From positions 224,001 to 288,000 of the forward strand of contig JAVKHQ010000001.1 of NCBI GenBank assembly GCA_031459875.1: a stretch of DNA of 64,000 bases, read 5' to 3'. The translations under genes were made by a program, and so were the position numbers. The notes under the pieces are model-generated. The model was not told the DNA's origin, ran no database searches, and was given only the letters and a program-made list of their open reading frames with translations. Below are positions 11,218 to 38,741 of this stretch, one piece after another. This DNA comes from Candidatus Fervidifonticultor sextus (lineage in GTDB: Bacteria; Sysuimicrobiota; Sysuimicrobiia; Sysuimicrobiales; Humicultoraceae). Each line of letters begins with the position of its first letter. The stretch's first letter is position 1.

Positions 11218-12313
11218 CTATCGCGCTCGCAGCGCGGCGTCGATGAAGCGGTCGAGGTCGCCGTCGAGCACGCCTGAGGCGTCGCCCGTCTCCACGCCGG
11301 TGCGATGGTCCTTCACCAGCTGGTAGGGGTGCAGGACGTAGGAGCGGATCTGGTTGCCCCAGGCCGCCTCGCGGTGCTCGCCCCGCAGTTCGGCGATCTG
11401 CTGGCGCTGGCGGGCCTCGGCCACCTCGGCCAGGCGCGCCTTCAAGACGCGCAGCGCCGTGAGCCTGTTCGCATGCTGCGACCGCTCGTTCTGGCACTGC
11501 ACGACGATGCCGGTGGGCAGGTGGGTGATGCGGACGGCGGTCTCGACCTTGTTCACGTTCTGGCCTCCGGCGCCACCGGCCCGGTAGGTCTCGACCTTGA
11601 GCTCGTCGTCGCGGACCTCGACCTCGGCCTCCTCGACCTCCGGGATGACGTCCACCAGGGCGAAGGAGGTGTGCCGGCGGTGCGCCGCGTCGAACGGGGA
11701 GAGGCGCACCAGCCGGTGGACGCCCCGCTCGGTGCGCAGATACCCGTAGGCATACGGTCCGGCGACGATGACCGTCACGCTCTTGATCCCCGCCTCTTCG
11801 CCCGGTGAGACATCCACGATCTCCGCCTTGAATCCCCGGCGCTCGGCCCAGCGCAGGTACATGCGCAGCAGCATCGCCGTCCAGTCCTGGGACTCGGTGC
11901 CGCCGGCGCCCGCATGGATCGAAAGGATGGCGTTGGAGGCATCGTGGGGCCCCGAGAGCAGCGCCTCGGTCTCCAGGCGCGTCAGCCCTTCGGTCAACGC
12001 CCGCGCCTCAGCGGCGAGCTCACCGGTATCCAGGCCGCCGGGGGACTCGGCGGCCAGCTCGAGCAGGACGCCGAGGTCCTCCACCCGCCGCTCCAGCGCC
12101 GCCACGGTCTCGACGGTTGAGCGCAGCGCGCTCAGCTCCTGGCCGATGGCGCGCGCGCGCTCCTGATCGGCCCACAGCGAGGGCTCCTGCATGATCTTCT
12201 CGAGTTCGGCGATACGGGCGTGCTTGGCGGCTAGGTCAAAGATGCCCCCGCAGGTCCTGGAGGCGCCGCCGGCTCTCGCTGAATTGGGCCAGGAGGTCGT
12301 CGAGTTGCATCAT
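11218..12313 (-). CDS. prfB: peptide chain release factor 2 (programmed +1 frameshift)
   Basis: SPF and GGQ motifs; short 5' ORF MMQLDD...RGHL ends at CTT TGA C and continues in the +1 frame. Confidence 0.96.
12235..12250 (-). promoter_or_regulatory. RF2 +1 frameshift site
   Basis: CGGGGG-CAT-CTT-TGA-C: internal SD-like run, 3-nt spacer, slippery CTT TGA. Confidence 0.92.
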
Positions 12314-28346: not shown

Positions 28347-28376
28347 AAAAGAGCGCCGTCTCAGGGACGGGCGCTC
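28347..28376 (-). terminator. T-box attenuator terminator
   Basis: GAGCGCCCGTC-cctga-GACGGCGCTC-TTTT. Confidence 0.8.
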
Positions 28377-28562
28377 CGCGGTTCCACCCTGATTCCCGCG
28401 GCACGCCTCGCACCGCGGGCTCTCGCTCCGCGCTCTCGGGCGGATCCCGGCAGGGGCATTGACCTGCGGCTTGGGAGCGCCGTTCACCGCGCCCCGCGCC
28501 CGTTCCCACCACCCACGGGCTCTCTCAAGCGGTTTGGCGGCTACTCCTCTCCCGCATCGCCG
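28347..28562 (-). ncRNA. glycyl T-box riboswitch leader
   Basis: T-box AATCAGGGTGGAACCGCG (28377-28394); stem I with AGTA/GAA, AGAGA and GGTGGGA motifs; GGC specifier at 28479-28481; terminator follows. Confidence 0.9.
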
Positions 28563-28582
28563 TGCGTGATACAGCCTGGGCC

Positions 28583-28611
28583 ATTCTAGCAACCGGGACC
28601 GGCGCGGTCAA
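28583..28611 (-). promoter_or_regulatory. glyQS sigma70 promoter
   Basis: TTGACC-17bp-TAGAAT just upstream of the T-box leader. Confidence 0.75.
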
Positions 28612-28838: not shown

Positions 28839-29591
28839 TCAAGACCGGCCCCGTTGAAGAACAGCCTGCGTCTGCCGCGTGAGACGCATGCCCAGATCGT
28901 GCAGGTCGCGGAAGCCTTCCGGCGACGGGAGGTTAATCTCGCTGGCCAAAAGCCGCAGATTCGGGCCTCCGGCCCAGACTCGGAGAGATCCGCCCTGGTT
29001 GGCATGCCACCGTTTGATCACAGCGATGACCTCATCTGACACAATCTCCAGTGCCACACGGGCATCGTCGGCGAACACGCGGTAGCCTTCCGGAAGCCTT
29101 CCGACGGCTGTGGTCACCTCTCGTGCGGTCCGGGCAAAGGCGATGACAGGCGGAAGCCGAACCGCGGTCCTCTGTCCGGCTGCGACGGGCCAGGACCCGG
29201 GAGTGACGCCTGCTGTGGGATCAACATCAAGTCGGTACCCGGACCCGGCCAGCCAGCCCCACGCCGACTCGCTCGTCTTGATATCGTTGCCGACGATCGC
29301 GAGCACATGTTCCGAGCGCACCGAGTCGGTCGTCCAAATCAACGTCGTGCGGCGGGGTGTCTCGGCGTCGTCCACACTGACGACACGAAGCGTCCACTCG
29401 ACGCCGTCCGTGGCGCCCGCGTACCGGGCGACCTCGCCCTCTCGGAACGGCTCTGTGACCCGTCCGCCCATGGCAAGGGCCCGTGCCGCGTGTATGGTAT
29501 GCTCCTTCCCCCGGGTCGCGCCTCTCCATCGCGCCAGCATGATCACGGCGATGACGACGACAATGAGAATTTCTACCAGCCCGAGCGACAC
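28839..29591 (-). CDS. hypothetical single-pass membrane protein (island)
   Basis: N-terminal TM GLVEILIVVVIAVIMLA followed by a ~220-aa alpha/beta domain; start uncertain. Confidence 0.6.
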   Translation of the reverse strand: MSLGLVEILIVVVIAVIMLARWRGATRGKEHTIHAARALAMGGRVTEPFREGEVARYAGATDGVEWTLRVVSVDDAETPRRTTLIWTTDSVRSEHVLAIVGNDIKTSESAWGWLAGSGYRLDVDPTAGVTPGSWPVAAGQRTAVRLPPVIAFARTAREVTTAVGRLPEGYRVFADDARVALEIVSDEVIAVIKRWHANQGGSLRVWAGGPNLRLLASEINLPSPEGFRDLHDLGMRLTRQTQAVLQRGRS

Positions 29592-29635
29592 GCCAGAACG
29601 GCCACGGCGACCCTCATTCTGGATGCCGGCCCGTA

Positions 29636-30862
29636 CTACCGCCCGGTCACGACGGTGATCGACGAACCCGGGCTTCCGGCACCAGGAGGAGTAATCGGGG
29701 ACGGTGTCTGCCACGGTCCAACGGCCCAGTTCGTGGCGATGGCACCGTCGGACCCTTGGTAGAAGACGTGCAACTGGTCACGGCGCAACACGGCTGCAAG
29801 ACGGGATCCGGCCCCGGCCGCACCCGCCGGCGTGATAGCGAAAGGCTTCGCCCACGGCCCGACGGCCCATGTCGTTGCGATCGCGCCGTCGCGAGCGATG
29901 TAGAACACGTGGAGTTGGTCGCCGCCACGGACCACGGCCGCCAGCGGCGAGTCCCCACGGGCTGCGCCGGGCGGGGTGATAGGGAACGGACTTGCCCAGG
30001 AGTGCTGACCATCCTTCCAGGTCGTCGCGACCGCGCTGTCGGGGCGCACGAAGAACACGTGAAGCTGGTCGTTCCCACGGGTCAGCACCGCAATCGGCGT
30101 CTGCGGGTTTCCCACACCGGGCGGAACAATCGGCTGCCGCCCTGTCGTCTTCTGGAGGGGGTTGACAGGGCGGCAGCTCAGGATGTCGATAGACCAGTCC
30201 TCAACGAGTGCGCCGTCGACGGCCTGGTAGAACACGCTCCACCCGCAGGGGTTCGGGATGAAGGCCAAGCCGGAACCGTTCCCCACCGAGCTGGCCGAAA
30301 CGACTTCCAAAGCATACACATGAGAGGCCGTGGCGGTCACGGGCTGCTCATCCATACCTGCGACTGAGTTGCGCGGGGTGACGAAGAATATCCAGCCGCG
30401 GCGGCCCCACTTGGCAGCCGTCAGCGGTGAGTCGCCGCGCACGAGGCCAACCTGTGTAATGGCGTTCGCTCTCCACTGGCGACCGACCTGCATCGCGCTC
30501 CCAATCGCGCCGTCGGGCTGGACGTAGAAGGCTTGCAAGAAGCCCTGTTCGTTGACCGCCGCGGCGATTGGCGAGTTTGGCCTCCCCGCGCCGGGCGGGG
30601 CAATCTGGGACGGCGTGCTCCATGGCCCCACGGCCCAGTTCATGCCCAGGGCACCGTTGGGGGCCTGATAGAAGACGTCGAGTTCGTCAGGGTTCCTGGT
30701 CAGGGTGCGCTCGATACGACCTCCCGGGAGGCCAGGCGCGGCCGCCGCAGCAATGACCGTCGCATCCGTGCTCTTCTTCGCCATCCCCGCCGGAGAGAGC
30801 AGTATCGAGGTCACGACAAGAGCGACTACCCCGATCTTCATGGCGCCGGCTTGGAGGAGCAT
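29636..30862 (-). CDS. secreted 7-repeat beta-propeller lectin-like protein
   Basis: signal peptide; seven LHVFYxxPDGAIATxW...W..P.PITPPGA repeats; AAAGGAGAG RBS. Confidence 0.75.
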   Translation of the reverse strand: MLLQAGAMKIGVVALVVTSILLSPAGMAKKSTDATVIAAAAAPGLPGGRIERTLTRNPDELDVFYQAPNGALGMNWAVGPWSTPSQIAPPGAGRPNSPIAAAVNEQGFLQAFYVQPDGAIGSAMQVGRQWRANAITQVGLVRGDSPLTAAKWGRRGWIFFVTPRNSVAGMDEQPVTATASHVYALEVVSASSVGNGSGLAFIPNPCGWSVFYQAVDGALVEDWSIDILSCRPVNPLQKTTGRQPIVPPGVGNPQTPIAVLTRGNDQLHVFFVRPDSAVATTWKDGQHSWASPFPITPPGAARGDSPLAAVVRGGDQLHVFYIARDGAIATTWAVGPWAKPFAITPAGAAGAGSRLAAVLRRDQLHVFYQGSDGAIATNWAVGPWQTPSPITPPGAGSPGSSITVVTGR

Positions 30863-30876
30863 CGGCGACTCTCCTT

Positions 30877-32136
30877 TCACTTGCCCGTCACCGCGACAAT
30901 CGGGGAGCCTGAGCTTCCCGCTCCCGGCGGCGTGATGGGCAAGGGCGTCTGCCACGGTCCCGATGGATACGGCAGCGGCGCCACGGCCCAGGTCGTCGCC
31001 AGCGCTCCGTCGGGCCCCTGGTAGAAAACGTGCAACTGGTCGTCGCGGTGCTCGACCGCTGCTATCCGGGAGCCTCGCCCGGCCGCGCCCGGCGGCGTGA
31101 TGAGGAAGGGCGTCCGCCAGGGATACAGTGGTCCGATTATCACATTGGCCCTCACCATCGAGGTCGTCGCCAGGGAGCCATCGGAACTCACATAGAAGAC
31201 GTGGATCACCTCGTCGCGATGAATGGCCGCTGCTAGCGGCGAATCGCCGCGAGATGCGCCAGGCGGTGTGATTGTGACCGGCGCAATACGGAAGAGCTCG
31301 TCAGTTCCATACGTCGTTGCGACAGCGTTGTCGGGCTGCACAAAGAAGACGTGGACCTGGGTATTGTTGCGGGTTAGCGACGCGATCGGCGACCGCGGAG
31401 CCGCCACAAACGGTGGGGCGATTTGGACTGGCGACTGCCATCCCGGCGCTGCCACGCGTGGTGCAAATCGGGCCCCCACCGGCACAAAGAAAACGTCCAC
31501 GATCGCTCCGGTGGTCGTCTGGTAGAACACGTGCCACTCGTTGTTGCGGCGCAGGGCCGCGGCAAGATCGGTGCCGTTGCCCGCCGAGCCGGCCGGCGTG
31601 ATCGCCTCAGCGGTCACGTGGGGGATCGCATCGGTCACCAGGCCCGCGAATATCCTCGAGACTGAGCCGTTCGGGGCGACGAAGAACACGCTGATCTCCC
31701 TGCCGAGCCTGACGGCTGCCAGCGGCGAGTCGACGCGCACGAGGCCGGGCTGTGTGATGGCGCTCGCCCTCCACCGGCCACCGCCGACCTGCATCACGCT
31801 CCCAATCGCGCCGTCGGGCTGGACGTAGAAGGCCTGAAACATGCCCTCCCTGTTGATCGCAGCAGCGATGGGCGAGTCCGGCCTCGCCTCGCCGCGCGGC
31901 GTAATCGACGTGGGCGCAAACCATGGCCCCCCCACTGTCGAGTTCGTGGCGAGCGAGCCATCAGGTCCCCGATAGAAGACGCGACGTTCATCGGGGCCTG
32001 GAGCCAGGTTGCGGCCGAGCCCCCGGGGCTCGAGACCGGGCTGAGTCACGGCGGCTCGGATTGCGCCCCCCTGCGCGGCGACCAAAGCCCAGAAGAGCAT
32101 GGAGGTCACAGCGAGCAGACGCACCCCGGTCTTCAT
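30877..32136 (-). CDS. secreted 7-repeat beta-propeller lectin-like protein (paralogue)
   Basis: signal peptide MKTGVRLLAVTSMLFWALVAA; seven repeats; ATGA overlap with upstream gene. Confidence 0.75.
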   Translation of the reverse strand: MKTGVRLLAVTSMLFWALVAAQGGAIRAAVTQPGLEPRGLGRNLAPGPDERRVFYRGPDGSLATNSTVGGPWFAPTSITPRGEARPDSPIAAAINREGMFQAFYVQPDGAIGSVMQVGGGRWRASAITQPGLVRVDSPLAAVRLGREISVFFVAPNGSVSRIFAGLVTDAIPHVTAEAITPAGSAGNGTDLAAALRRNNEWHVFYQTTTGAIVDVFFVPVGARFAPRVAAPGWQSPVQIAPPFVAAPRSPIASLTRNNTQVHVFFVQPDNAVATTYGTDELFRIAPVTITPPGASRGDSPLAAAIHRDEVIHVFYVSSDGSLATTSMVRANVIIGPLYPWRTPFLITPPGAAGRGSRIAAVEHRDDQLHVFYQGPDGALATTWAVAPLPYPSGPWQTPLPITPPGAGSSGSPIVAVTGK

Positions 32137-34418
32137 CGGCCCGTCACCGCGACGATCGGCGAGCCCGGGCTTCCCGCGCCTGGCGGCGTGATCGGGAAGG
32201 GCGTCTGCCACGGACCCACCGCCCAGTTCGTGGCGATGGTACCATCGGAGCCCTGGTAGAACACGTGCAACTGATCACGGCGCACGACAGCACCGAGGCC
32301 GGATCTCGGCCCGGCCGCGCCCGGCGGCGTAATGGCAAAAGGCTTCGCCCACGGCCCGACGGCCCAGTTCGTCGCCAGGGCCCCGTCGGGGCCGATATAG
32401 AAGATGTGCAACTGGTCGCCGCCGCGAACAACGGCGGCGAGCGGTGAATCGTTTCGAGCTGCGCCCGGCGGGGTAATGGGGAACGGCGCGGCCCAGGGAC
32501 GGTCGGCGCTCCACGTGGTCGCGACGGCGCCATCAGGCCCGATGTAGAAAGCATGAAGTTGGCCCGCGCGGAGCGCAACCGCGATCGGCGAGCCGGAACG
32601 TCCTGCTCCCGGCGGCGTGATCGGGAACGGCCGCTGCCACGGTCCTACCGCCCAGTTCGTGGCAATGGCGCCGTCGGGCCCCTGGTAGAACACATGCAAC
32701 TGGTCGGGTCCTCGCAGGACTGCCCGCAACTGAGACCCGGGCCCGGCGGCACCGGATGGCGTGATCGGGAAGGGCGTCTGCCACGACCCGACGGCCCAGT
32801 TGGTCGCCACGGCGCCGTCTGGGGCGATGTAGAAGACATGGAGTTGGTCGCCGCCGCGGACAACAGCAGCCAGGGGCGAATCTGCACGAGCCGTGCCCGG
32901 CGGCGTGATGGCGACCGGAGCCGTCCACGGACGGCGAGGGTCACTCCAGGTCGTCGCGATCGCGCCGTCGGGCTGGACGAAGAACGCGTGGATCTGCGCT
33001 CCACGGTTCACGACGGTTATCGGCGTGTTCGGCCGTCCCGCGCCGGGCGGCGTGACCGGCTCAGGCGTCTGCCAGGGCCCGACGGCCCAGTTTGTGGCGA
33101 TCGCGCCGTCACGCCCCTGGTAAAAGACGTGAAGCTCATCCGGACTCCCGGCCACGTTGCGCTCGAGTCTACCGCTGAACGGGCCGGGGCGGGCCACGGC
33201 CTCGCTGGTGATCCACTCAATCCTCACGCTCGTCGCACCTGGATTGAAGGTCCCAACCCGGATCGTGGTGCGGGTCATGCTGCCGTCGTGCCACCGCAGC
33301 GTCGGCGTCGTAGTCCTGCTGCCCCAGAGCATGTTGCCGCCTCGCCGGAGCGTCGGCGCGGCTTCAAGGTACACCCCAAGATGATTGCCCTCACCGCCGG
33401 TGAGGTTGGGAACCGTGGCGGGATTCTTGTCGCGGTCGTGAAGCACATGCCAGATGGCCACACCCTCGCCGCACACGTTCCGGTCGTAGTGGAACCCCGG
33501 TTGCCCTGGCGCGCGGTACTCCACGATGAAGTACTCGTTCGGGCCCCGCGCCGGATCGTAGAGGATCACCGCCGAGTCCGTGGCCACATTGTTCGCCTGC
33601 AGGGTCTCGCTCCCTGAAGCCGCCAGCGAGCGGATGCGAGGCTCCGCCCAGCCGAGTTGGAGCTTGTGCCACGGATCGAGGTGGACCGATTCGCGCCCGT
33701 CGGCGCCTCCGATCATCGGCCCCATCAATGTACAGCCTGCGTTGAGATTGTCGTTCGTCCCCCAGCGACCATAGAGATCCTTGGTGCCAAGGAAGTGACT
33801 CAGTTCGTGAGCGAGCAGAAACAGATTCGGCCGGTCCCCGACCAGCAGAACTGTCACGCACACTGAGACAGACGAACTGCCTGCCTTGATGCAGGCCGGA
33901 TCAGTCCCTCTCGCGGCCCCGCTAGGGTAGCTCTCGATGATGAGAACCGCGAGCTCGCTTGCGGTCACTCTCCCGTCCCTGTTCGCGTCGAACGGCGCGA
34001 AGTCGAACCCGGACATCACCGCAGCCTCGATGACTCGCGCCGGCCGCTTGTTGTCGTTGGTCTCCTGGCCCACGGCCGCTGGGAGTTGAAGGGGACCGAT
34101 AATCCCTTGACCCGCACGCGACCAGAAGAAGCGCCCTCTCGAGTTCTCGAGGAAGTAGCCGTTCACGCTCGGGGGGCGCAACTGGTTGAAGACCAGTTCG
34201 TCGTAGAAGGCGTTGGTGTGAGCCAGCGGCGGCCGGCCCGCGTACTGTGCCGTGATCACGAGCAGGGAAACGCTTGAAGGCGGCTTCATCTTCTCGTGCC
34301 CGAAGTCGCGCAGTGTGAACTCAGGCGCACCTTCTGCGGGCACGAGCGCGAGCACGAGCGCGGCCGCGACGACGAGGGCGAGGGCCCAGATCTTCGTGAA
34401 GACCGCTTTCTGAGACAT
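32133..34418 (-). CDS. secreted M6-family-like metalloprotease fused to a 7-repeat propeller
   Basis: signal peptide; SVNGYFLENSRG, DANRDGRVTASE, HELSHFLGTKDLY, CTLMG, HLDPWHKLQLGW, EYFIVEYR, GVAIWHV; seven C-terminal repeats. Confidence 0.82.
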   Translation of the reverse strand: MSQKAVFTKIWALALVVAAALVLALVPAEGAPEFTLRDFGHEKMKPPSSVSLLVITAQYAGRPPLAHTNAFYDELVFNQLRPPSVNGYFLENSRGRFFWSRAGQGIIGPLQLPAAVGQETNDNKRPARVIEAAVMSGFDFAPFDANRDGRVTASELAVLIIESYPSGAARGTDPACIKAGSSSVSVCVTVLLVGDRPNLFLLAHELSHFLGTKDLYGRWGTNDNLNAGCTLMGPMIGGADGRESVHLDPWHKLQLGWAEPRIRSLAASGSETLQANNVATDSAVILYDPARGPNEYFIVEYRAPGQPGFHYDRNVCGEGVAIWHVLHDRDKNPATVPNLTGGEGNHLGVYLEAAPTLRRGGNMLWGSRTTTPTLRWHDGSMTRTTIRVGTFNPGATSVRIEWITSEAVARPGPFSGRLERNVAGSPDELHVFYQGRDGAIATNWAVGPWQTPEPVTPPGAGRPNTPITVVNRGAQIHAFFVQPDGAIATTWSDPRRPWTAPVAITPPGTARADSPLAAVVRGGDQLHVFYIAPDGAVATNWAVGSWQTPFPITPSGAAGPGSQLRAVLRGPDQLHVFYQGPDGAIATNWAVGPWQRPFPITPPGAGRSGSPIAVALRAGQLHAFYIGPDGAVATTWSADRPWAAPFPITPPGAARNDSPLAAVVRGGDQLHIFYIGPDGALATNWAVGPWAKPFAITPPGAAGPRSGLGAVVRRDQLHVFYQGSDGTIATNWAVGPWQTPFPITPPGAGSPGSPIVAVTGR

Positions 34419-34533
34419 GGCGACTGTCTGGCCTTCGTGTGAGGTGCGCCGCGAGGGGTCGATCAAGGGCGAAGGCAAACGAGCGCTCCTGGGCGATCGC
34501 CGCGACTGGCTGGACCAGGGGGCCGAAGGCATT

Positions 34534-34911
34534 CTAACGCCCAAGGAATAGCGCGGCAGGCCCGCTAATGCTCGTGCTGGGGCCCCCGATCGTGCGGATC
34601 GGCGCGACGTTCCCGTTCGCGCCGGGGGCGAAGACCGTCACGGTGTTGGTAGCAAGGTTGGTCACATAGATGTTCCCGGCCGTGTCCTGTTCGACGTCCC
34701 GGGGGGTGCTGAGACCCGTATTCGCGCCGCCGATCGTCCGAACCGGGGGTGCGTTCCCGCTCGCCATCGCGTCGTACACGGTTATCGTACTGGGGAGGGA
34801 ATTGGCAACGTAAAGCATGGTGGCGCTTGGAACCTGGAGCGTCACCAAACCACACGCCGAGGCCAGAAGTGCGCTTACGGCCAGCAGGGTTACCCTGCGC
34901 ATCTTGCCCAT
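34534..34911 (-). CDS. small lipoprotein with two NHL/YVTN-like blades
   Basis: lipobox LASAC; two copies of (L/I)YV.N....(I/V)TV(Y/F)...A.GN..P.RTIGG..T..S.P. Confidence 0.75.
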   Translation of the reverse strand: MGKMRRVTLLAVSALLASACGLVTLQVPSATMLYVANSLPSTITVYDAMASGNAPPVRTIGGANTGLSTPRDVEQDTAGNIYVTNLATNTVTVFAPGANGNVAPIRTIGGPSTSISGPAALFLGR

Positions 34912-34975
34912 GGGCTCACCACCCCCCATCGGGTCCTTTTCACTGAGAGGAGCATAGGATGCTGCGGCGGCTGGT

Positions 34976-34997
34976 GCATCGCCCGGTTCGGGCCATT
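34976..34997. repeat. 22-bp box, copy 1 (putative activator site)
   Basis: GCATCGCCCGGTTCGGGCCATT, identical to 37969-37990; 19 bp upstream of TATGCT on the minus strand. Confidence 0.85.
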
Positions 34998-35026
34998 CTC
35001 CCCAGGAGGGGACGGGCGGGCGAGCG

Positions 35027-37681
35027 TCAGACGATACCCAGTTCGTGCGCGCGCAGCGTCGCCTCGTGGCGCGATCCCACGCCCAGCTTGTCGTAGATGT
35101 TGGCGACGTGGCGCTTCGACGTGTGCGGACTGATGGTGAGCGCTGCGGCGATCCTGGAGACACTCGCGCCGAGGGCCAGCAGGCGCAGGACCTCGATTTC
35201 ACGTTCGGTCAGGTTCGCGGGATGCGTCTGAGGCACCCGCTGCCCGTCCTCGGCCAGGTCGACGGCGACGTTGTCCGGCAGGCGCCGCCCCTCTGCCCAC
35301 AGGCTGGCGAACCTGACTCCACCAAGCGCAGCCTTCGCCAACTGCTCTGCGCGCTGAATGCACGACCGTTCTTGAGGAAACGCGATCGCCCCGGTCCGTT
35401 CGCGAATGGAGGACGCAGCCGCGAGCAGCAGTGCCACGCGCGCGTGATCCTGTTGCGCTGAGGCGATCCAGGCGAATCGTTCCAGACATCGGGCGAGGCC
35501 ATGACGGCGGCCGACCCTGACAAAGAACCCTGATGCTTCCCGCAACATCGATGCCGCCTGCTGATGCTTCCCGACCTTGATGGCGACCTCCGCCGCCGAC
35601 ACCAGAGCCTGCGCCGCCAGTCCCTCATGCCCCGACGAGCGGGCAGTCTCCAGCGCCTGGGCGAGCAGATCGCTGGCGGCCAAGGGGTCCCCGCGGTCTG
35701 CCGCAACACCTCCCAGTTCGACCTGCGTCAGAAACACCCACCTCGTAGCCCCGCAGGTGTGCGCGAGGCTCAGGGCACTGTCCAACAGGGACGCCGCGCG
35801 TGCCAAGTCACCCTGATGCCTGGCCAGACGGCCGAGGCCCCAGGTCGCCTGCGCCACGCCAAGCGCGTCGCCAAGCCGTCGCCGGAGGGCCAGACTCTCT
35901 TCGTACAGAGCGGTCGCACGGCCAAAGTCCGCGAGATCGACCGCGATCGCGGCCAGGGTCTGCAGCACCCGAGCCACGCTCCCAGGCGGACCCGTCCGGC
36001 GGAGGATCCGAAGGCTCTCGGTATTCAGGTCGGCGCTTCGCCGGAGATGTCCGCGGAGGGACGCCAGGAATCCCAGATGGTGCAGGCACAGCGCCGCACC
36101 CCGTTCGTCGCCCGCCTCGCGCATCAGCCCAAGCGCCTCGCCCCACGCGCGCTCGGCAGCTTCGTACTCGCCCTGTTCGAGCCTGATGCTGGCAAGGAGG
36201 CTCAGGGCGTGCGCAACGGCCCGGCGGTCGTCGTGTTTCCGGAAAAGGGCCAGGCTGTCCACGAGGGCGCCTTCTGACTCCCTGAGGTCCCCGTGACGAT
36301 GAAGCAGCACGGCGGTGGCAAACAGGGCACTCCCGCGCACCGCGTCGGGTGCCGCCTTGTCGGCGTCCAGGAGGCTCGTCAGCCACCGCGAGCCGGCAGC
36401 GAACTGGCCTCGGAGTTCCCAGTAGGGCAGTAGCGCCGTGGCCATCCGAAGGCCTCCCACGGTGTCTCCGCTGTCGCGAAAACCCTCGAGGGCCGCCCGC
36501 AGGTTGTCGTATTCGAGATCGAGACTCGTCGCCACCTCAGCCTGCCGGGGACCGTTCATCTCGTGCCCGGCCTGCTCGGCCATGGCCAGGAAGAACCCTC
36601 GATGCCGCCGGAAGACCTCGGCAGCCTCATCGGCTTGCAGAAGCCATTCGCGCCCACGGGCTCGGACGGCGGCGGGCAGCCGACATCGGATCTGTCCGTC
36701 GCGGACCTCGCGAACCGCGAGTGACTGATCCACAAACTCGCCGATCATCTCCAGGATATCCGAGGGGCCGATCACGCCGCCAGCGCAGACGGTCTCCGCA
36801 GCGGTGATGGTCCAGCCGCCCGCAAACGCCGTAAGTCGCCGCAGCAGGACCCGTTCCTTGGCCGAGAGCAGGCTGAACCGCCACTCCAGCGTGTCAGGCG
36901 GCCCGCCGAGTGGAGGCGCCGCATGGCCGGAAACGGACAGCCTCGCTCCCGCGGCCAGTCGCGCGTCGATCTCCTGCACGGACATGAACCGACACCACGC
37001 TGCGGCGAACTCGATCGCAAGCGGCACGCCGTCAAGCCGGCGGCAGATCCGCGCCACCGTCTCGCCGTTCTCGACTGTCAGCCGGAAGGCAGGCAGCGCG
37101 ACCGCCGCTCGCTCGGCAAACAAGCGGACCGCCTCGTGCGACAGCAGGCTCATGGTCGTGACATGGAGAAACTCCGTGGGTGGAACCGAGAGCGGCGCAA
37201 GACTGTAGGTGTGTTCCTCTGCAAGACCGAGGCTCAGCCGGCTGGACGCGAGCACACGAAGATCGGTCGTCTCACCAAGCACGTCGCCAACGATGTCCGC
37301 GCAGGCCGCCGCCCAGTGCTCGCAGTTCTCAAGCACGAGCAGCGCCGTTCGGGGGCGCAGGAACGCCTTGAGCACCAGGCGAGACGCTCTTCCCGGTTCG
37401 TCGCGCAGGCCGATCGCCGCACAAAGCGCCTCAGGAATTGAGTCGGGGGCGGACAGCGCGCTCAGGTCCACCCACCACACGCCGTCGGTATACCGATCGG
37501 TCATGCGGCTGGCTACTTCGAGCGCCAGCCGCGCCTTGCCAACTCCAGGAGGCCCGATCAGGGTGACCAGCCGGGATGCCGTCAGAAGGTCACAGATTTC
37601 CCGAATCTCACGGTCTCGCCCGACGAAGCTCGTCAAGTAGGTGGGTAGGTTGTGGTTGGAAACTCTGATCCGGCCCGGCAT
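35027..37681 (-). CDS. STAND-type ATPase-TPR-LuxR transcriptional regulator
   Basis: HNLP..LTSFVGR, GPPGVGKAR, LLVLENCEH, ICRRLDGVPLAIE, TPRs, C-terminal LTEREIEVL...HVANIYDKLGV.SR. Confidence 0.88.
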   Translation of the reverse strand: MPGRIRVSNHNLPTYLTSFVGRDREIREICDLLTASRLVTLIGPPGVGKARLALEVASRMTDRYTDGVWWVDLSALSAPDSIPEALCAAIGLRDEPGRASRLVLKAFLRPRTALLVLENCEHWAAACADIVGDVLGETTDLRVLASSRLSLGLAEEHTYSLAPLSVPPTEFLHVTTMSLLSHEAVRLFAERAAVALPAFRLTVENGETVARICRRLDGVPLAIEFAAAWCRFMSVQEIDARLAAGARLSVSGHAAPPLGGPPDTLEWRFSLLSAKERVLLRRLTAFAGGWTITAAETVCAGGVIGPSDILEMIGEFVDQSLAVREVRDGQIRCRLPAAVRARGREWLLQADEAAEVFRRHRGFFLAMAEQAGHEMNGPRQAEVATSLDLEYDNLRAALEGFRDSGDTVGGLRMATALLPYWELRGQFAAGSRWLTSLLDADKAAPDAVRGSALFATAVLLHRHGDLRESEGALVDSLALFRKHDDRRAVAHALSLLASIRLEQGEYEAAERAWGEALGLMREAGDERGAALCLHHLGFLASLRGHLRRSADLNTESLRILRRTGPPGSVARVLQTLAAIAVDLADFGRATALYEESLALRRRLGDALGVAQATWGLGRLARHQGDLARAASLLDSALSLAHTCGATRWVFLTQVELGGVAADRGDPLAASDLLAQALETARSSGHEGLAAQALVSAAEVAIKVGKHQQAASMLREASGFFVRVGRRHGLARCLERFAWIASAQQDHARVALLLAAASSIRERTGAIAFPQERSCIQRAEQLAKAALGGVRFASLWAEGRRLPDNVAVDLAEDGQRVPQTHPANLTEREIEVLRLLALGASVSRIAAALTISPHTSKRHVANIYDKLGVGSRHEATLRAHELGIV

Positions 37682-37735
37682 ACCGCGACCCCGCTGATTT
37701 CGTAGGTCTACTACGCCGCGGCGCCGACTCCTTCA

Positions 37736-37933
37736 TCAGCGAGGGCGAGGACGCTCGGGCGCGTTCGCCACCCTGAAAAGAAAGCGCACGAGGCTGCGGG
37801 GCCCGGAGAACTCGAATGTCTGTTGCGTGGCTGCGTTGGTGACAGACCCGCACCACGTCGGTCGACTGCGGTCGGGTGCGCGCACCTCCCTCCACAGGCG
37901 CACGATGAACACTCGCTGGTCCACGCGGTACAT
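37736..37933 (-). CDS. small hypothetical protein upstream of the STAND regulator
   Basis: 65 aa, FIVRLWRE...WCGSV...TQQTFEF...LVRFL; starts 10 nt after a putative -10. Confidence 0.65.
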   Translation of the reverse strand: MYRVDQRVFIVRLWREVRAPDRSRPTWCGSVTNAATQQTFEFSGPRSLVRFLFRVANAPERPRPR

Positions 37934-37968
37934 CGTGCCGTGAAGCATGCGCCCCCACGGTCGTCGGC

Positions 37969-37990
37969 GCATCGCCCGGTTCGGGCCATT
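37969..37990. repeat. 22-bp box, copy 2 (putative activator site)
   Basis: identical to 34976-34997; 19 bp upstream of CATGCT on the minus strand. Confidence 0.85.
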
Positions 37991-38298
37991 TGACCATGGA
38001 CCGCCATCGCGACCGAACGAGTTCCTCGCGATTGAGGCCCAGCAGCCGCGGGCCGCCGATGACGGGGTATTGCGCCAGATCCTGTCCGCCACAAGCGGCG
38101 TGGCCTTGGGGCGAGCACGAGCACCCAGAGGTCGTGGGGGTTGCCGGTTGGTACGGACCAACGCTGAACGGAGCAAAAACGGATGTTTTGCTCCATGCTG
38201 TGGGGAAGGGGACGTACCATCAGGGGAAGTGCACTGTTTGGCCTCGCGCCAGGCGCGGACCCGTTCAGGCCCCGCTTGGGTTCCTCTCAAGGGCGACC

Positions 38299-38430
38299 TC
38301 AGGCCCCGCTGTGGCACTCCAGCCGCTGGAAGGCGCCCAGCAGAGCCTTGAGCTCCTCTGCGGGTAGCTCACCGAGGATCTCCAGCAGGACCGTCCGCTG
38401 GGTAGCGGGGAAAATCAGGATCCAGGCAGA
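38299..38430 (-). pseudogene. possible 3' remnant of a MarR-like gene
   Basis: frame ...IFPATQRTVLLEILGELPAEELKALLGAFQRLE..* has coding-like codon usage but no start. Confidence 0.25.
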
Positions 38431-38486: not shown

Positions 38487-38741
38487 CTACCCGATGCCCA
38501 GCGGCTCCTCTTCGCGCTGACGGCGGCGGATGGACGGCGCCGGCATGGACGCGATCAGGGCCGCCGCGGCAAAGGCCACCAACCCGGCGACCGCCCAGGA
38601 GGCCGGGAGCTCAATGACCTCGGTCTCGGTCTTGACGCGCACCGTGGATCCGGGCCCGATGCGGACGACGCCGCGCGCTTCGGCGAGCGCGGCGCCAAGC
38701 TCGATGATGGCGCGACGCATCCGGTCGAGGTCGATCTCCAT
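38487..38741 (-). CDS. small membrane-associated protein, possibly DUF4342-like
   Basis: GGAGGT RBS; VRVKTETEVIELP followed by a hydrophobic stretch; lies after recO. Confidence 0.55.
   Translation of the reverse strand: MEIDLDRMRRAIIELGAALAEARGVVRIGPGSTVRVKTETEVIELPASWAVAGLVAFAAAALIASMPAPSIRRRQREEEPLGIG

Follow-up and report, generated by a model that had tools for sequence, protein, structure and literature searches.

A group of seven genes, here termed the islet, is located in a 64,000-nt stretch of contig C1 of Candidatus Fervidifonticultor sextus (genome of 3.05 Mb, 96% complete). The whole stretch is referred to as the window, and positions are given in it unless another locus is named. 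The genus has been assigned to the phylum CSP1-3/Sysuimicrobiota (PMC11604079), and 94 genomes of this phylum, the present one (G000) included, were surveyed. The islet genes are all on the minus strand and extend from position 37933 down to 28839, in the number, order and common orientation originally predicted. They encode a 65 amino acid (aa) protein, a STAND regulator, a lipoprotein, a protease fused to a propeller, two stand-alone propellers and a membrane protein (Table 1).

The earlier domain assignments also hold: nucleotide-binding (NB), TPR and GerE domains in the regulator, two NHL-type blades in the lipoprotein, an M6 domain in the protease, and exactly seven blades of about 48 residues in each of the three propellers. 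The protease and first propeller genes overlap by ATGA, and the gaps that follow are 14 and 44 nt; gaps of 115 nt each lie 5′ of the lipoprotein gene and 5′ of the protease gene. All five products encoded downstream of the regulator display a hydrophobic N-terminal segment, in agreement, as far as hydropathy goes, with the signal peptides and membrane anchor assigned to them earlier. An Rfam scan inside the islet gave matches at chance level only and no non-coding RNA.

Table 1. Positions of the islet genes, candidate operators and flanking features in the window
Feature	Position	Strand	Basis
65-aa protein, unnamed beta-beta-beta-alpha family, near-leaderless first cistron	37736..37933	-	Family search, AlphaFold2 (AF2)
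884-aa STAND NB-TPR-LuxR/GerE regulator	35027..37681	-	Pfam
125-aa lipoprotein, two NHL-type blades, accessory	34534..34911	-	PknD/Pizza NHL matches
761-aa secreted M6-like zinc metalloprotease with symmetric BP39L-type 7-bladed propeller	32133..34418	-	TIGR03296, NF052348, PDB 6GXR
419-aa secreted stand-alone 7-bladed propeller, variable loop insertions	30877..32136	-	NF052348 E 7e-36
408-aa (or 401-aa) secreted stand-alone 7-bladed propeller	29636..30862	-	NF052348 E 6e-36
250-aa single-pass membrane protein, unnamed family	28839..29591	-	Hydropathy; homologue search
Candidate operator 1, 22-bp near-palindrome; -10-like CATGCT at 37949-37944	37969..37990	-	Identical to operator 2
Candidate operator 2; -10-like TATGCT at 34956-34951	34976..34997	-	Conserved in G001, 1 mismatch
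Scar, 3′ end of phnD-like phosphonate-binding-protein gene	38006..38066 (approximate limits)	-	DNA match to G001
Conserved membrane protein of 84 aa, core, to the right of the islet and outside it	38487..38741	-	Comparison with relatives
glyQ promoter and T-box leader, intact core left flank	28360..28611	-	Promoter 28611-28583; RF00230

Acquisition and distribution of the islet

The islet has a GC content of 0.672, as compared with 0.713 in each flank, which is within the lowest 4.9% of 993 10-kb windows genome-wide. GC at third codon positions ranges over 0.74–0.80 in the five long islet genes; of the 40 other long genes in the window, none is below 0.85. The A/T-richness that had been noticed by eye is thus borne out. 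Islet DNA is present in hot-spring metagenome runs, all of one study. Both junctions are spanned, with no differences and at flank-like depth, by contigs of run X1 (possibly the source sample), and one contig of run X2 crosses the left junction; misassembly is rejected on account of this tiling. In a third run, X3, contigs are about 90%–94% identical to window positions 30876–31213 (first propeller) and 37140–37614 (regulator), indicating that this sample holds another related carrier of the module.

The chromosomal site was compared in relatives. A glyQ match is found in 45 of 60 relatives, and recO and glyQ are on one contig in 40 (searches combined by hand). The distance between the two genes is 1.1 kb or less in 38 of these 40, and 1.5 and 3.9 kb in the other two; here it is 10.4 kb. 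The islet is therefore non-core. The original prediction was that it interrupts a recO-glyQS backbone. The insertion is confirmed, but there is no direct junction with recO, as the gene of an 84-aa core protein intervenes. This conserved gene and an intact glyQ promoter and T-box leader form the boundaries of the insert. The 84-aa protein (76%–98% identity) adjoins recO and/or glyQ in all eight relatives where it is found; it has a single transmembrane (TM) segment, is unnamed and matches no Pfam family above cutoff. The T-box matches RF00230 with an E-value of 7e-11 and a score under the gathering threshold, and empty-site relatives carry the same glyQ promoter. The T-box leader itself is full length in G000, G003, G005, G012 and G020, internally shortened in G004 (L060), and nearly all gone in G001 (L058:3482-3553).

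About 60 nt of the 3′ end of a phnD-like gene remain upstream of the small gene. The DNA match to G001 extends to position 38066, and the corresponding stretch in G001 ends an intact PF12974 gene that lies directly 5′ of the small gene. The survival of this gene end suggests that the block derives from a phnD-adjacent context. Between the scar and the 84-aa gene there is a short reading-frame remnant (38180–38420), which has no match in the genome or in the loci examined. In the closest congener, G002, whose recO is 95.5% identical at the DNA level, the sequence departs from the present one at the same point (38485) and unrelated DNA lies there; the insertion site thus looks reused. Its cargo after the 84-aa gene (L056:2786-4638) has a low GC content and consists of a coiled-coil protein gene and, at the contig end, a gene that by eye is HicA-like.

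Profile searches of the islet proteins show no integrase or transposase among the open reading frames, and no border or terminal repeat of the islet is among the repeats listed. A self-mobile element is rejected on these grounds, and the islet was presumably moved by other means. Its foreign composition, together with the empty site in relatives, shows it to be a horizontally acquired, non-core module that is not self-mobile. The lipoprotein is a local add-on.

The effector cassette is found in three of the 94 genomes, at three different sites, and is missing from 91, including four of the five congeners; a core operon is rejected on this account. Strong matches to the propeller are present in G000, G001 and G020, with a weak one in G081, and the membrane protein has strong matches only in the same three, with a weak one in G066. 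Orthologues of the regulator are limited to G000 and G001, the two genomes in which the cassette occurs together with the regulator and the 65-aa gene. In G001 the module is at another locus, behind the phnD-like gene, and consists of the small gene, regulator, protease-propeller, one propeller and membrane protein. G020 has the protease-propeller, two propellers and the membrane protein on two short contigs whose adjacency we infer, followed by a different LuxR-STAND protein with 32% identity and canonical Walker motifs. (This downstream gene, L016:1667-4006, has 5′ of it a perfect palindrome, TAGGAA-A-TTCCTA, in the region 1430–1470, possibly its operator.) The lipoprotein is missing from both the G001 and the G020 copies. 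This distribution shows the conserved unit to be the protease-propeller, the stand-alone propellers and the membrane protein, with an exchangeable regulator. The regulator accompanies the cassette in G000 and G001, but it is not an obligatory partner, since G020 has no orthologue.

The regulator and its candidate operators

An identical 22-mer is found 5′ of the small gene and 5′ of the lipoprotein gene, with arms that match at 7 of 8 positions around 3 nt. The longest word shared between these two intergenic regions was 13 nt at most in 200 shuffles, as against the 22 nt observed. The 19-nt core has no further exact copy in the genome, the next best having three mismatches. Operator 1 is present in exact form at the equivalent place in G001, where operator 2, with one mismatch, lies directly 5′ of the M6 gene; the 20 nt on either side of the latter share only 3/20 and 6/20 positions. 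With one mismatch allowed, the pattern gives five matches in the 94 genomes (two in G000, two in G001 and one in G032), and the reversed pattern, used as a control, gives none. A palindrome 5′ of the G020 protease gene that appears operator-like by eye failed the pattern match and is not counted.

In all four copies from the two species a -10-like hexamer lies exactly 19 nt downstream (CATGCT, TATGCT, CATGCT and TACGCT), and a promoter scan shows no consensus -35 at the operator-linked promoters. If the hexamer is placed at -12 to -7, the palindrome is centred near -43. This is like the lux box, an inverted repeat of 20 bp that has its centre at -42.5 (PMC3376562). The geometry appears to be that of a LuxR-type activator site, which would imply activation of two promoters and positive autoregulation. 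The earlier idea of co-regulation thus gains sequence evidence in the form of a common palindrome at activator distance in two species.

Alternatively, the palindrome may serve a repressor as its operator or be left over from a duplication, the regulator, degenerate as it is, being no inducible activator of the islet genes. A site that overlaps the -35 region could also repress, support for the site comes from two species only, and the G020 cassette exists without the regulator. We regard this as very unlikely, given the fixed 19-nt spacing in four of four copies where the scan finds no consensus -35, the unrelated flanks at operator 2, the strict co-occurrence with the regulator, and a helix-turn-helix (HTH) domain that is the most constrained part of the protein.

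The regulator matches three Pfam families above cutoff: TPR_12 (2e-22), GerE (1e-14) and AAA_16 (4e-8). It had been described as a ligand-gated STAND-LuxR activator; the NB/TPR/GerE layout is correct, but the ATPase needs to be qualified, as both Mg/hydrolysis residues are substituted. The Walker A motif reads GKA (Thr50 to Ala), with the Lys kept, and Walker B reads LENCEH (Asp118 to Glu). In P-loop NTPases these two positions make up the catalytic pair that is linked by a hydrogen bond (PMC9599734). Both GK[T/S] and the Walker B Asp are kept in all 32 other STAND loci examined. Of 548 database homologues the best 120 listed were inspected, 119 with the protein itself left out; Thr/Ser is present in 118 and Asp in 117 of these, and the exceptions are the orthologues P0144 and P0145. 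The change in P0145 (68% identity) is Asp to Glu only, with Thr/Ser retained, so that the loss of Walker residues looks stepwise. The Walker B Glu is common to three orthologues, down to 68% identity. The ratio of nonsynonymous to synonymous substitution rates (dN/dS) is 0.24 overall, 0.17 in the NB domain and 0.13 in the HTH (simple counting on one pair, G000 and G001).

AfsR becomes active when ATP binds rather than through hydrolysis, and its T337A form retains the ATP-induced conformational change (PMC10936776). As the Walker A Lys is kept while the Thr and the Walker B Asp are changed, the islet regulator probably binds nucleotide but hydrolyses it poorly, and the likeliest consequence is that switching on is retained and switching off is weak. 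Since purifying selection persists in spite of the lost residues, the regulator may be a slow-resetting switch. A regulator that is fully inert or constitutive is a possible alternative.

The 65-aa protein belongs to a family with 51 representatives at E ≤ 0.001 (two long ones were excluded as unrelated), and the 51 aligned rows show no Pfam match. Its AF2 model has three strands and a helix (confidence score, pLDDT, of 88). Foldseek finds nothing in the PDB at E ≤ 0.001, and a fold assignment is rejected, as the best VIA Z of 5.8 (root mean square deviation, rmsd, 3.8; 62 aligned) is at background level; the likeness of the model to three-stranded folds that bind DNA/RNA is no more than a lead. 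The dN/dS is 0.38.

The small family is present in 20 of the 94 genomes. Outside G000 and G001 there are 19 matches, and 18 loci were annotated, one at a contig edge being left out. A MalT-like or BTAD regulator lies within two genes upstream in nine of the 18, and several of these nine have direct repeats 5′ of a -10-like element and exported proteins downstream. As seven of the nine are related, they amount to about three independent contexts. In the remaining nine the small gene is among exported-protein or unrelated genes. We hypothesize that the small protein is a regulatory partner of the regulator.

Two groups of these loci may be described. In L129–L132 and L134–L137 (from G007, G022, G021, G026, G058, G070, G072 and G065) the order is MalT-like/BTAD regulator, TTTCACC-like direct repeat, -10-like element, small-family gene and a gene for an exported protein of double-rhodanese or beta-propeller type; L132 has lost the regulator gene but for its 3′ end, which persists along with the repeat. 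In L120–L123 (G011, G019, G014 and G005) the small-family gene is amid exported proteins with no adjoining regulator, and PrsW-type intramembrane proteases are found near it in L120 and L123.

Secreted products and proposed role

The zinc motif of M6 proteases, HEXXHXXGXXD (PMC3890501, PMC2613228), is intact in the islet protease as HELSHFLGTKD. The H, E, H and D residues are conserved in three of three protease orthologues, and G020 has Arg for the motif Gly. The M6 part gives no Pfam M6 match and no PDB sequence match. The dN/dS of the protease-propeller gene is 0.18 and 0.14.

The fused propeller has PDB 6GXR as its best match in sequence (E-value 3e-21, 29% identity) and as its top fold match (TM(target) 0.82, rmsd 2.5 Å, 345 columns), and both Trp residues are present in seven of seven blades. 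The Trp pair is intact in about one of seven blades of the 419-aa propeller and in four of seven of the 408-aa propeller, where blades 2–4 have diverged. The stand-alone propellers have variable insertions at the same hairpin position. Across the three genomes, identity is 77%–83% for the fused propellers and 55%–67% for the stand-alone ones. A published table gives L-fucose and mannose as ligands of the BP39L class (PMC11186620). Fold and family agree with the label of lectin given earlier, but firm membership of the family does not follow, as scores are below cutoff and the Trp pattern is lost in most stand-alone blades.

M6 domains are elsewhere fused to PLL-like or tectonin repeats, and in a survey of homologues this propeller is also found on astacin, M35 and DUF4185 catalytic proteins. 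The sequence features of the propellers support a targeting role for the fused one. Many metagenome proteins (P0026–P0088) have the propeller inserted into a DUF4185 domain of the D-arabinanase family or placed next to one, and this is a candidate module for the targeting of arabinan/mannan.

The lipoprotein, with a lipobox-like LASAC, has homologues in 14 of the 93 other genomes. These are mostly longer and multi-repeat, and the islet protein may have arisen from a multi-blade lipoprotein by shortening. The start of the membrane protein is most likely GTG at 29591 (250 aa). It has one TM segment with basic residues after it, and its C-terminal domain is probably cytoplasmic; its nearest Atlas clusters are unnamed, with a TtfA-like lead at 0.90. 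A PADLOC search gave generic TPR/HTH matches on the regulator only and none for the other six proteins, which lends no support to an anti-phage defence system.

The islet might be thought to be decaying passenger DNA without a current function. The Walker substitutions, the two blades of the lipoprotein as against its longer homologues, the upstream gene scars and a frameshift in G001 would fit with this. All seven frames are open, however, with dN/dS of 0.14–0.40, the operators are conserved, and the Walker B Glu is held by three orthologues of as little as 68% identity. Decay is accordingly considered highly improbable.

On balance, we favour the reading that the islet is a horizontally moved, two-promoter inducible regulon for glycan-guided extracellular proteolysis, most plausibly for scavenging. 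From the sequences we infer activation, feedback, slow reset, sugar binding, proteolysis and purpose. The regulator would occupy the palindrome at each of the two promoters, where its centre is near -43, and activate them. One promoter would drive the small gene and the regulator itself, forming a positive feedback loop, and the other the operon of lipoprotein, protease, two propellers and membrane protein. Induction would occur via the TPR sensor, and poor hydrolysis would make for a slow reset afterwards. The enzyme would use its propeller, symmetric and with seven sites, to dock on glycosylated surfaces (cells, whether dead or living, S-layer, matrix glycoproteins) and would cut protein there, most plausibly freeing peptides as food. 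The stand-alone propellers would be diversified binders of altered specificity.

Several observations weigh against this reading. The TIGR03296 match of the M6 domain (E-value 4e-22 over 270 residues) scores 79.3 bits, below the cutoff of 110.8, and the model that AF2 gave for this part, from a 4-sequence alignment, has a pLDDT under 50 and was rejected as unusable for structure. All three propellers are below NCBIfam cutoffs (NF052348, 189.5, 124 and 124 against 200; NF052349, 163, 116 and 104 against 400). There is no peptide or sugar transporter in the islet. Two of the four hexamers (CATGCT) are without the first T, and the operator footprint is limited to two related species. The stand-alone propeller of G001 is frameshifted, and the G020 cassette has no regulator orthologue, small gene or operator, although the contig stops about 100 nt 5′ of its protease gene. 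In the available DNA of 34 metagenome M6-like loci, several of them short contigs, there is no other module gene, and two of the 34 have 85% identity and unrelated upstream genes.

With the same regulation the purpose may instead be attack on living neighbours, as antagonism or predation, the stand-alone propellers being target-recognition variants and the membrane protein a self-protection factor. The patchy, mobile distribution and the faster divergence of the stand-alone propellers would suit this, as would the membrane protein that follows the cassette in three of three copies; characterised M6 proteases target hosts (PMC2613228). On the other side, the islet proteins searched show no toxin domain and no defence match beyond the generic TPR/HTH, a cytoplasmic membrane-anchored domain is no shield against an external protease, and the divergence is one of percent identity only. 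We hold attack to be unlikely, though the likeliest of the rivals to scavenging.

The module could also remodel the surface or biofilm of its own cell, with lectins for adhesion, protease for release, and stand-alone propellers that possibly bind or restrain the protease. Multivalent propellers are typical adhesins. The signal peptides, the lipoprotein and the translational coupling of protease and first propeller agree with such a role, and the asymmetric loop insertions fit with protein binding. A housekeeping surface role is disfavoured by the lack of the module in 91 of 94 genomes, four of five congeners included, and there is no linked matrix or S-layer gene; we think it distinctly unlikely.

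A more speculative form of the favoured regulon, which we would entertain only as a long shot, takes the hydrolysis-dead STAND protein in positive feedback to be a latching switch. The 65-aa protein, which in the phylum at large recurs as first cistron next to STAND/BTAD activators, would be a dedicated partner that replaces ATP turnover as reset or trigger, and the protease with its diversifying propeller adaptors would be retargeted to different prey glycans.

Elsewhere in the window, positions 12232–12310 are in a prfB-like gene that has CTT-TGA-C, the site usual for programmed frameshifting, which we take to be ordinary.

Relation to known systems

Searches of open-access text did not turn up this combination of genes, the operator, a STAND site degenerate in both Walker motifs, or the small protein that recurs. 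In the main text of the paper on the phylum (PMC11604079) the words protease, peptidase, lectin, LuxR and secreted do not occur. The islet provides, in an uncultured phylum, a compact regulon with a predicted regulator-operator pair. A natural STAND variant without both catalytic Walker residues offers a way to ask how such switches reset without hydrolysis. The protease-lectin fusion is probably thermostable, the propellers add new members to a lectin fold of which few examples have been characterised, and a family of small proteins that has no name recurs at activator-driven promoters. For a group whose descriptions deal chiefly with autotrophy, the islet would indicate a side that degrades biomass or is antagonistic.

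The regulator has the layout of the STAND activators MalT, AfsR and the large ATP-binding LuxR proteins, i.e. NB, winged helix, TPR and HTH with the C-terminal HTH of GerE type, and adjacent activated promoters. It differs from them in that both the Walker Thr and Asp are substituted, and the islet differs in its apparent autoregulation via a duplicated palindrome, its putatively co-transcribed unnamed 65-aa protein and its secreted hydrolase/lectin targets. With the M6 metalloproteases (immune inhibitor A, PrtV) the islet protease shares the signal peptide, HEXXHXXGXXD and the TIGR03296 match. Unlike these it has a compact catalytic part of about 375 aa, a C-terminal propeller in place of PKD domains, and an environmental thermophile as host.

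The seven two-Trp blades of about 48 residues are shared with the BP39L/CV39L lectins (PropLec7C) and PLL/PHL, 6GXR being the best match in sequence and fold. The islet propellers differ in their 29% identity and predicted secretion, and in that one is fused to a protease and two have asymmetric variable loops. In the astacin-, M35- and DUF4185-propeller hydrolases the same propeller is an exchangeable appendage on various catalytic domains, whereas in the islet the fusion is part of an operon, along with paralogues that stand alone and a membrane protein, and has a dedicated regulator. Loci of polymorphic toxins with orphan modules are alike in having an effector followed by diversified C-terminal paralogues, and in being mobile and patchy. 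In the islet, unlike these, there is no recognised immunity family, the variable part is a binding domain, and the paralogues have their own signal peptides. Each large part of the islet is thus of a known kind, and a hydrolase with a lectin appendage under a local activator is a familiar design.

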